Source of the DNA: Bacilli bacterium
GTDB taxonomy: Bacteria; Bacillota_I; Bacilli_A; ML615J-28; CAG-313
DNA: 25,844 bases
Direction: 5' to 3'
Assembly (NCBI GenBank): GCA_045653225.1
Contig: JAZOLP010000093.1
Coordinates: 1-25,844 of the forward strand
Positions 8,753 through 9,820 of the stretch are shown here, one piece after another. How positions within the stretch are numbered: position 1 is the first letter of the stretch; each line of letters opens with the position of its first letter. Below the pieces are notes generated by a model. It did no database searches. It was not told where the DNA came from and saw only the letters and a list, made by a program, of their open reading frames with translations. The position numbers were made by a program, and so were the translations under genes.

Positions 8753-8904
8753 GATTTAAAAAATCTTATTTAAAAAAAGATAAAGAAGAATTGCAAGAAT
8801 ATTTACAAATTATGAGGCGTTGCTTTGAAGTACCGCCAAAGAAAGGTAAAGGTTCTTATAATAGAAGGAGGAAATATGGCAAACGAAACTTTTCAGATGA
8901 ATAA
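8749..8904 (+). CDS. small highly basic hypothetical protein (51 aa)
   Basis: An ATGA overlap joins it to the phosphatase stop. It overlaps the protease start by 29 nt and may be spurious. Confidence 0.2.
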   Translation: MRFKKSYLKKDKEELQEYLQIMRRCFEVPPKKGKGSYNRRRKYGKRNFSDE

Positions 8905-9820
8905 AGCTCTCGGCGCGGCAAGTGAACCAATATCTCATTTGCGCAACTATGATTATGAGCAGGTGTGCGGCTGCGTGTCTGGAGCATCAACATTCCCGAC
9001 CAAGTGGTCAATTCCGCACGAGAATACAGGTACACTTAAAGATCAGGGACAGATTAGTGCGTGTGTTGCAGAAGTAATCGCGCAAATCGCAGAAGAGAAT
9101 TATAGAAGACAATTTGGTGAAAGCAAAGAAATGTCTGAAGGATTTATTTATGGCGCACTTCGTTCTGATGCATATACAGGCGAAGGTATGGTTACAAGTC
9201 TCGCTATGAAGCATTGGATGAACATTGGCACAGTAACCAAAGAAGAGTTTGACCAGCTTGTGGAAATGCCAGAAATGAAGAAATTAGTAGAAAAATTTCC
9301 GCATTTATATGAGCTCGCGCAAACATTTAAATTAAAAGGATTCACTTCTCTTGGCTATGCAGATAGAATAAAGAGAGACCAGTGCATTAAAGATGCTCTT
9401 ACTAAATATAAATATGGTTTAGTTGCAGTTGCACCTACATATTTTATTGGCGGAAGTCATTGTATTATGCTTACTGGTTGGGACGATAAAACAGGAAAAT
9501 ATGAATTTAAAAATTCTTGGGGAGAAGATTATGGTAAAGATGGTTTTGCTTACATTCCAAAAGAATCTTTAAGTGAAATTTATCTTCCATTGTTTGAAGA
9601 TTTAACCCTTCCTTTTACAGATGTAAAAGAAACTGATTGGTATTATAAACCAATTAGAAATATGTATTTTACAGGTTTACTTAAAGGTAAAACTGAAACT
9701 ACTTTTGAACCAAATGCTCCAATTACAAGAGCAGAGGTTGCAACAATTATGGAAAGAATTATGTCAAGAATTGATAATAAATTAGATGTGGTAAATGAGG
9801 TATTAAATAATAAAGATTAA
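8876..9820 (+). CDS. papain-family (C1A) cysteine protease fused to a C-terminal SLH (S-layer homology) domain
   Basis: ATG at 8876 lies 7 nt after AGGAGGA. The tracked start at 8825 is a TTG. It has the catalytic Q...C (DQGQISACVAEV), a catalytic His block GGSHCIMLTGWDD, and KNSWGEDYGKDGFAYI versus papain KNSWGTGWGENGYIRI. The C-terminus YFTGLLKGKTETTFEPNAPITRAEVATIMERI matches the SLH consensus. Confidence 0.75.
   Translation: MANETFQMNKALGAASEPISHLRNYDYEQVCGCVSGASTFPTKWSIPHENTGTLKDQGQISACVAEVIAQIAEENYRRQFGESKEMSEGFIYGALRSDAYTGEGMVTSLAMKHWMNIGTVTKEEFDQLVEMPEMKKLVEKFPHLYELAQTFKLKGFTSLGYADRIKRDQCIKDALTKYKYGLVAVAPTYFIGGSHCIMLTGWDDKTGKYEFKNSWGEDYGKDGFAYIPKESLSEIYLPLFEDLTLPFTDVKETDWYYKPIRNMYFTGLLKGKTETTFEPNAPITRAEVATIMERIMSRIDNKLDVVNEVLNNKD

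Follow-up and report, generated by a model that had tools for sequence, protein, structure and literature searches.

Phage lysis has been described in terms of a holin–endolysin–spanin scheme (PMC12596118). In its standard form, the holin–endolysin model does not cover the passage of tailed-phage progeny through the S-layer of Gram-positive hosts. Two described proteins are of particular relevance to the gene considered here. The first is LysBT1, an endolysin from a Brevibacillus thermoruber prophage, in which an amidase is followed by one C-terminal SLH domain through which the protein trimerizes and binds the wall; it was described in 2025 as the first SLH-bearing endolysin (PMC12285257). 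The second is xylellain (PDB 3OIS) from Xylella fastidiosa, a short C1A peptidase of bacteria, which typifies another of the closest known systems. Horizontal transfer of xylellain-type short C1A peptidases into Myoviridae and Siphoviridae was noted earlier (PMC10380794), so that a phage carrying this kind of protease is no novelty by itself. Here we analyze a stretch of 25,844 nucleotides from a Bacilli bacterium (positions 1–25,844 of contig JAZOLP010000093.1, assembly GCA_045653225.1; hereinafter the window), which bears a gene at 8876..9820 on the forward strand coding for a papain-family (C1) peptidase joined to an SLH domain, hereinafter C1-SLH. On balance, we favor the interpretation that its product is a lysin-style modular enzyme, combining an N-terminal xylellain-type C1A protease with a single C-terminal SLH domain, that plays an accessory part in lysis. 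Taken separately, the components have precedents: phages with xylellain-type C1A genes, lysins with a single-SLH module, and lysis proteins of accessory function. What appears to be undescribed is their combination, C1 joined to SLH, with a conserved place in lysis cassettes.

The C1-SLH protein and its family

The gene was delineated from the window sequence, the Pfam matches and the N-termini of its homologs as an open reading frame (ORF) of 314 codons plus a stop, whose ATG at 8876 is preceded by the ribosome-binding site GGAGG at about 8866–8870. A longer version starting from a TTG at 8825 was rejected, since the homologs begin at the equivalent of Met1. Pfam profiles recover both domains in the product: Peptidase_C1 (PF00112) over residues 51–230 (9026..9565, +; 28.0 bits, where the gathering score is 20.7; E = 2.9e-6) and one copy of SLH (PF00395) over residues 246–289 (9611..9742, +; 46.7 bits against a cut-off of 20.8, E = 3e-12). 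A sequence-only reading of this DNA had recognized papain-like Cys, His and Asn-Trp blocks and an SLH domain with the motif ITRAEVATIM (encoded at 9722–9751), and both assignments are borne out by these profile matches. PHROG 16701, annotated as ‘peptidase’, likewise matches the protein (E = 6e-12); NCBIfam and PADLOC searches gave no match for it, and it matches none of the families with known peptidoglycan-hydrolase activity.

The catalytic residues occur in the order and with the spacing seen in papain: Gln57 (CAG, 9044–9046) and Cys63 (TGT, 9062–9064) reproduce the Q-x5-C arrangement and are followed by His195 (CAT, 9458–9460) and by Asn213-Ser214-Trp215, the codons of which start at 9512. 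An alignment of 119 family members at 41–89% identity shows no variation at Gln57, Cys63, His195, Asn213 or Ser214, and at least 90% of the sequences keep Trp215. The position equivalent to papain Cys22 is occupied by Ile; the structural disulfide is therefore absent, which suits folding in the cytoplasm. Judged by its conserved residues, C1-SLH is predicted to join a genuine SLH domain to a C1 peptidase with an intact catalytic site. An AlphaFold2 model computed from the 119-sequence alignment (pLDDT 92.5, pTM 0.89) displays the two-lobed papain fold. All its close structural neighbors are protein- or peptide-cleaving C1 enzymes, with no CHAP, NlpC/P60 or C39-like protein among them, and cathepsin B- and L-type zymogens and allergens appear further down the ranking. 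The catalytic domain is, in our assignment, a xylellain-type C1A cysteine protease.

Ahead of this domain lies a conserved segment of 40 residues (8876..8995, +), in which the motif R23-x-YDYE-x-VCG is nearly invariant in the 119 aligned sequences and for which the model is confident at residues 11–30. It is not a signal peptide: the N-terminus of C1-SLH is hydrophilic, as the sequence-only reading had remarked, and no hydrophobic N-terminal stretch is found in any of 120 listed homologs, which have at most 8 hydrophobic residues in 12 within the first 40 positions. These 120, to which our statements on N-termini and on fusions apply, are drawn from 276 homologs found by a word-indexed search. 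By analogy with xylellain-type enzymes, the segment may be a candidate pro-segment or one that occupies the cleft. Two family members, P0057 (4001–5092 of locus L146) and P0111, have an additional N-terminal segment with a zinc-ribbon-like CPxCG...CxxCGW pattern.

Nearly all of the 120 listed homologs are about 300 amino acids long and comprise C1 and SLH domains, a minority measuring about 480 amino acids, and a precomputed Peptidase_C1 match exists for most homologs. When 1.84 billion representatives were searched exhaustively with HMMER, 52 clusters (at 50% identity) reached E ≤ 1e-30; three SLH repeats occur in about 40% of them and one in the others, as in C1-SLH itself. The family belongs to phages and prophages of gut Clostridia that have not been cultured: close relatives come only from metagenomes, from IMG/VR contigs and from metagenome-assembled genomes (MAGs) of such Clostridia and of Oscillospiraceae; no close relative of the protein is present in deposited phage records, and a megablast comparison of window positions 8000–13000 with phage records returned no match. 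Distant C1 homologs, with 22–41% identity over the best segment, were also seen in MAGs of Methanobacteriaceae, Methanosphaera and Methanobrevibacter (L014, L023, L032, L039 and L053), which are organisms with pseudomurein walls.

The SLH domain is conserved too: Phe247, Asp249, Trp255, Gly271 and Arg285 are invariant in the 119 homologs, and at least 90% of these retain Thr284, Ala286 and Glu287. C1-SLH displays Trp255, the stretch GLLKG (Gly267–Gly271) and TRAE (284–287), corresponding to the Trp, the GxxxG-type Gly and the TRAE motif with described roles in ligand binding (PMC10628300, PMC12285257). The family profile matches the SLH domain of Bacillus anthracis Sap (1.9e-14) and the single-SLH stalk of Veillonella OmpM1 (8BZ2; 3.9e-10), the latter at positions 237–303, which span the SLH domain and run into the helix behind it. 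OmpM1 trimerizes through its single SLH domain, and the TRAE arginine binds pyruvate ketal (PMC10628300, PMC12285257). In our model, the protease core is followed by the SLH helix 257–266 and then by a long helix, 285–313 (9728..9817, +), which continues from the SLH domain and is a candidate trimerizing coiled coil. Because Trp255, GLLKG and TRAE are present, and three-SLH variants occur in the family, C1-SLH probably forms a homotrimer that binds the secondary cell wall polymer (SCWP).

Gene neighborhoods of the family

Gene contexts were counted for 21 loci carrying a member of the C1-SLH family, and in 14 of them the gene adjoins one for a peptidoglycan hydrolase (with one holin gene between the two at L061). 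Five types of hydrolase occur as partners (Amidase_2, Amidase_3, Phage_lysozyme, Hydrolase_2 and Peptidase_M15_3), and a Pfam-recognized holin is also encoded alongside in eight of the 14 lysin-linked loci. The arrangements are as follows: The C1-SLH gene precedes Amidase_2 at one end of a prophage (L003) or Amidase_3 (L139), or it follows Amidase_3 (L141) or Amidase_2 (L013), and in three loci Hydrolase_2 is followed by a version of the protease with three SLH domains (L140, L144 and L145). Elsewhere the order is C1-SLH, hydrolase and holin, the last two being Amidase_2 and Phage_holin_4_1 (L006), Amidase_3 and Phage_holin_4_1 (L008), or Phage_lysozyme and an r1t-type holin (L009, where the holin is recognized by Pfam, and L011, where the ORF is nearly identical in sequence). 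In other loci, the protease gene lies between Peptidase_M15_3 and an r1t-type holin (L010), between an r1t holin and Amidase_2 (L147), or ahead of Phage_holin_4_1 and Amidase_2 (L061). Small ORFs upstream in L003, L139 and L141 were considered as holins and rejected, being hydrophilic and having no Pfam match. The recurrence of the protease beside partners from five catalytic families would be expected of an add-on to lysis, and it fits that role better than that of an endolysin substitute.

This association does not extend to phage C1 peptidases at large. As a control, we collected the genes on either side of 56 distant phage C1 peptidases that share 24–28% identity with C1-SLH and have no SLH domain. 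Among their 111 neighbors, which fall into 44 families, no lysin or holin family is found in the 25 commonest, a comparison that leaves room for rarer singletons; the lysis linkage thus sets the SLH-bearing family apart, and a linkage general to all phage C1 peptidases was rejected on this control. Two of the distant phage C1 peptidases (from the L064–L138 set) adjoin a gene for a chagasin-family (I42) peptidase inhibitor, which suggests that protease–inhibitor pairs exist in some phages. Searches with a hidden Markov model derived from the family's SLH domains recovered neither another SLH protein in the window nor an SLH domain on the partner endolysins or other gene products of the lysin-linked loci. 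In relatives with the three-SLH form, genes for a T4-type RNA ligase, RlaP and NADAR lie close by. At L146, the C1-SLH gene is followed by about 1 kb of apparently non-coding DNA.

A proposed accessory role in lysis and its alternatives

The family has the layout of endolysins, with an enzymatic and a wall-binding domain and no Sec signal, as judged by Pfam and the 120 listed homologs. Since the signal peptide is lacking, lysis-dependent release is the natural route to the wall. We propose that C1-SLH would be made in the cytoplasm and would gain the wall only once the holin permeabilizes the membrane late in infection. There, three SLH domains, helped by the C-terminal helix, would form a three-pronged module binding pyruvylated SCWP, the same anchor as is used by the S-layer and other SLH proteins. 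The protease would then cut peptide bonds in the wall compartment, most likely in the S-layer or in SLH-anchored wall proteins, and the opening of this protein lattice would complement the action of the peptidoglycan hydrolase in letting the virions escape. We favor such substrates because every close structural relative of the enzyme is a true proteinase, because it accompanies complete peptidoglycan hydrolases, another peptidase included, and because its SLH anchor is that of the putative substrates. More tentatively, and with less confidence than we attach to an accessory lysis role as such, the C1-SLH family could constitute an unrecognized class of phage lysis proteins, i.e., holin-released proteases of the S-layer (or of an SLH-protein layer) that dock on the pyruvylated polymer of their own substrates and play a spanin- or LysB-like role for S-layered Gram-positive hosts.

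Several observations weigh against this proposal. No recognized lysin adjoins the C1-SLH gene in the window itself or in L001, L142, L059, L062 and L146. The Amidase_2 endolysin of the window phage, identified by Pfam at 24593..25438 (+) and the presumed lysis partner, is encoded about 15 kb downstream and not in one lysis cassette with the protease; L001, the closest relative, syntenic and at 86% identity, has the same arrangement, with the C1-SLH gene away from the endolysin. The lysis linkage of the window gene would thus be extrapolated from homologs at 41–58% identity. In many prophages the lysis cassette follows the tail genes, and at some loci position alone does not tell whether a gene belongs to lysis or to the tail. 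On the substrate side, a host S-layer and pyruvylated SCWP are assumed. The earlier suggestion that a wall-targeted C1 protease might serve egress receives strong encouragement from the lysis-cassette position in 14 of the 21 related loci; in the window, the distance to the endolysin stands against it.

The architecture could also be read as that of a second peptidoglycan-cleaving activity, namely an endopeptidase endolysin directed at stem peptides or cross-bridges and encoded apart from the amidase or muramidase. This we regard as unlikely, though it is the main alternative: the domain layout and the missing signal peptide are those of endolysins, the gene adjoins endolysins and holins, and at L146 it stands in the lysis position with no other recognized lysin within 4 kb. 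The single SLH domain of LysBT1 serves as the wall-binding domain of an endolysin (PMC12285257), and in mycobacteriophage LysA the N5 domains, of the papain superfamily, are predicted to act as peptidase modules (PMC3314691). In BFVD, phage C1-fold proteins bear the names ‘Peptidoglycan binding-like’ (A0A6J5MXS7) and ‘N acetylmuramidase’ (A0A8S5PQA2); a further one is named ‘Copper amine oxidase’ (A0A8S5SPG9), and C1 domains may thus have been fused repeatedly to different wall-binding modules. Endolysins with two activities are common, and CHAP and amidase activities are combined in two-domain endolysins. However, the structural neighborhood of C1-SLH, populated by protein- and peptide-cleaving C1 enzymes, is at odds with such a role, and we know of no family C1 member that cuts peptidoglycan, with the D-residues and gamma links of its peptides. 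Moreover, the protease is paired with a complete peptidoglycan hydrolase in those 14 loci, in one case with another peptidase (M15_3), and is never fused to a peptidoglycan hydrolase domain among the 120 listed homologs. We favor S-layer or other wall proteins as substrates over peptidoglycan peptides.

Wall targeting and proteolysis would equally be features of a receptor-destroying enzyme that acts after lysis, staying SLH-bound to debris or to neighboring cells and cutting an S-layer receptor, whereby it would keep progeny from adsorbing to debris or block superinfection. S-layer proteins serve as phage receptors in Firmicutes (PMC13437554, PMC12680318), and the dispersed placement of the gene outside lysis cassettes in large phages is compatible with this function; yet it does not by itself explain the tight embedding of the gene between holin and endolysin at L147. 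It would overlap the favored mechanism, differing only in the benefit, and we consider it improbable. That the protein is carried on the virion tail and opens the S-layer by local digestion at entry is in our estimation very improbable: the gene does follow tail-fiber genes in several prophages, the PHROG matches to the SLH region include a family annotated as a tail protein, and L142 encodes an SLH-bearing phage protein of 897 amino acids, but the C1-SLH protein is small and lacks a recognizable tail-attachment domain. Furthermore, its gene lies inside the lysis module, after the endolysin or between endolysin and holin, in L010, L013, L061, L141 and L147, and is surrounded in large phages by genes of nucleotide or RNA metabolism. 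The option least credible to us is that the protease works in the cytoplasm on proteins of the host or the phage, for instance in host takeover or counter-defense, with the SLH domain repurposed for oligomerization. It would accord with the lack of a signal peptide and with the auxiliary or counter-defense-like neighbors in the window (NAD+ synthesis, NADAR, RNA ligase and PIN-PhoH). Nevertheless, the conserved ligand-binding Trp, Gly and TRAE arginine of the SLH domain argue for a real wall-polymer ligand, and the existence of three-SLH variants, the linkage of most relatives to lysis cassettes and the lack of a PADLOC match likewise speak against it.

Other genes of the window and comparison with known systems

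In the window, the C1-SLH gene is part of a long same-strand run that includes genes for NAD+ synthesis, NADAR, an RNA ligase, a metallophosphatase, an AAA_33 kinase, an SPFH/flotillin-like protein and a PIN-PhoH protein. It is separated by a gap of 21 nucleotides, with no terminator inside, from a gene at 9842–12289 for an MVP-like protein of 815 amino acids, which matches MVP_shoulder (E = 1.8e-13), Vault_3 and Band_7 and has no match in PHROG, NCBIfam or PADLOC. A terminator-like hairpin at 12296..12319 (+) ends the transcription unit after the MVP-like gene; given this hairpin and the short gap, co-transcription of the two genes in the window is plausible, as the sequence-only reading had pointed out. 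The significance that it attached to this link does not carry over to the relative L001, which has no MVP-like gene. There, a near-identical hairpin (AAGGGTAGT...GCTACCCTTT) stands directly 3' of the protease gene and is followed by a homolog of window 12381–12779. By this comparison, the MVP-like gene is evidently a lineage-specific insertion or deletion between the stop codon of the protease and the conserved terminator, and a conserved functional pairing of the two genes was rejected.

A second SPFH-related gene of the region, in addition to the MVP-like one, at 14372–15862, codes for the SPFH/flotillin-like protein (Band_7 and Flot) and is kept in L001. Also kept there is a very basic ORF of 51 amino acids (8749–8904) that overlaps the start of the C1-SLH gene by 29 nucleotides and has a weak ArfA match below threshold (E = 1.7e-4). 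At 2186–5717, contiguous genes code for an isochorismatase/PncA-like protein, NAPRTase, a cytidylyltransferase-like protein (a candidate NMNAT) and NAD synthase, and a NADAR-domain gene comes after them; the upstream region of L001 instead has a NadR-like gene (CTP_transf_like and AAA_28) and an NMN-transporter gene. The NAD+ gene set may replenish the NAD+ of the infected cell against NAD-depleting defenses. Further along the run are an RNA ligase with a PHA02142 OB-fold domain (5763–6926) and the PIN-PhoH fusion (16740–17960).

Neither a 2025 survey of viral lytic proteins nor a 2026 review of S-layer–virus interactions includes a phage protease acting in lysis or against S-layers, or an S-layer-directed equivalent of spanins or LysB, and a targeted full-text search of the literature found no description of a C1-SLH lysis protein. 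For the S-layer step, the family offers a concrete candidate that is conserved, equipped by its domain for wall anchoring and linked to holin and endolysin genes in many phages of gut Clostridia. Should C1-SLH instead cut peptidoglycan peptides, it would be, to our knowledge, the first family C1 enzyme to serve as an endolysin catalytic module. With either outcome, engineered lysins against S-layered Firmicutes would gain a new enzymatic module.

Among known systems, Cwp84 of Clostridioides difficile had been brought up by the sequence-only reading as an example of a wall-bound C1 protease. Cwp84 is a host protein that processes precursors in S-layer maturation and not in lysis; besides a signal peptide and a propeptide, it carries a lectin-like domain, and its wall-binding repeats are CWB2 rather than SLH. 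C1-SLH has neither the signal peptide, the propeptide and the CWB2 repeats of Cwp84 nor its host-encoded origin; Cwp84 ranks only 20th among its structural matches, and its place as the closest relative is ruled out by this ranking together with the different wall-binding module. Another is Tsac_2838 of the cultured Thermoanaerobacterium phage THSA-485A, which is an independent case of a phage C1A peptidase (Peptidase_C1, E = 3.2e-12) beside an endolysin in a Firmicute host: its gene lies directly downstream of that for a GH25 endolysin. It differs in having no SLH domain and only 26% identity over 62% of the query, and is uncharacterized. With the spanins of phages of Gram-negative hosts and LysB of mycobacteriophages, C1-SLH would share the proposed logic of a third lysis-cassette gene aimed at an extra envelope layer; spanins work by membrane fusion and LysB as a mycolyl esterase directed at the mycomembrane, and neither is homologous to C1-SLH. 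Xylellain, to whose type we assign the catalytic domain, has only about 20% sequence identity to C1-SLH and differs in being a cellular enzyme with no SLH or other wall-binding domain and no proposed lysis role. The catalytic domain of LysBT1 is a zinc N-acetylmuramoyl-L-alanine amidase that attacks peptidoglycan, whereas that of C1-SLH is a C1 cysteine protease, usually encoded beside a separate hydrolase; nevertheless, both have their enzymatic domain in front and one SLH domain with the Trp/GIIxG/TRAE motifs at the C-terminus, and a prophage lysis context is shared with LysBT1 by related loci of the C1-SLH family.

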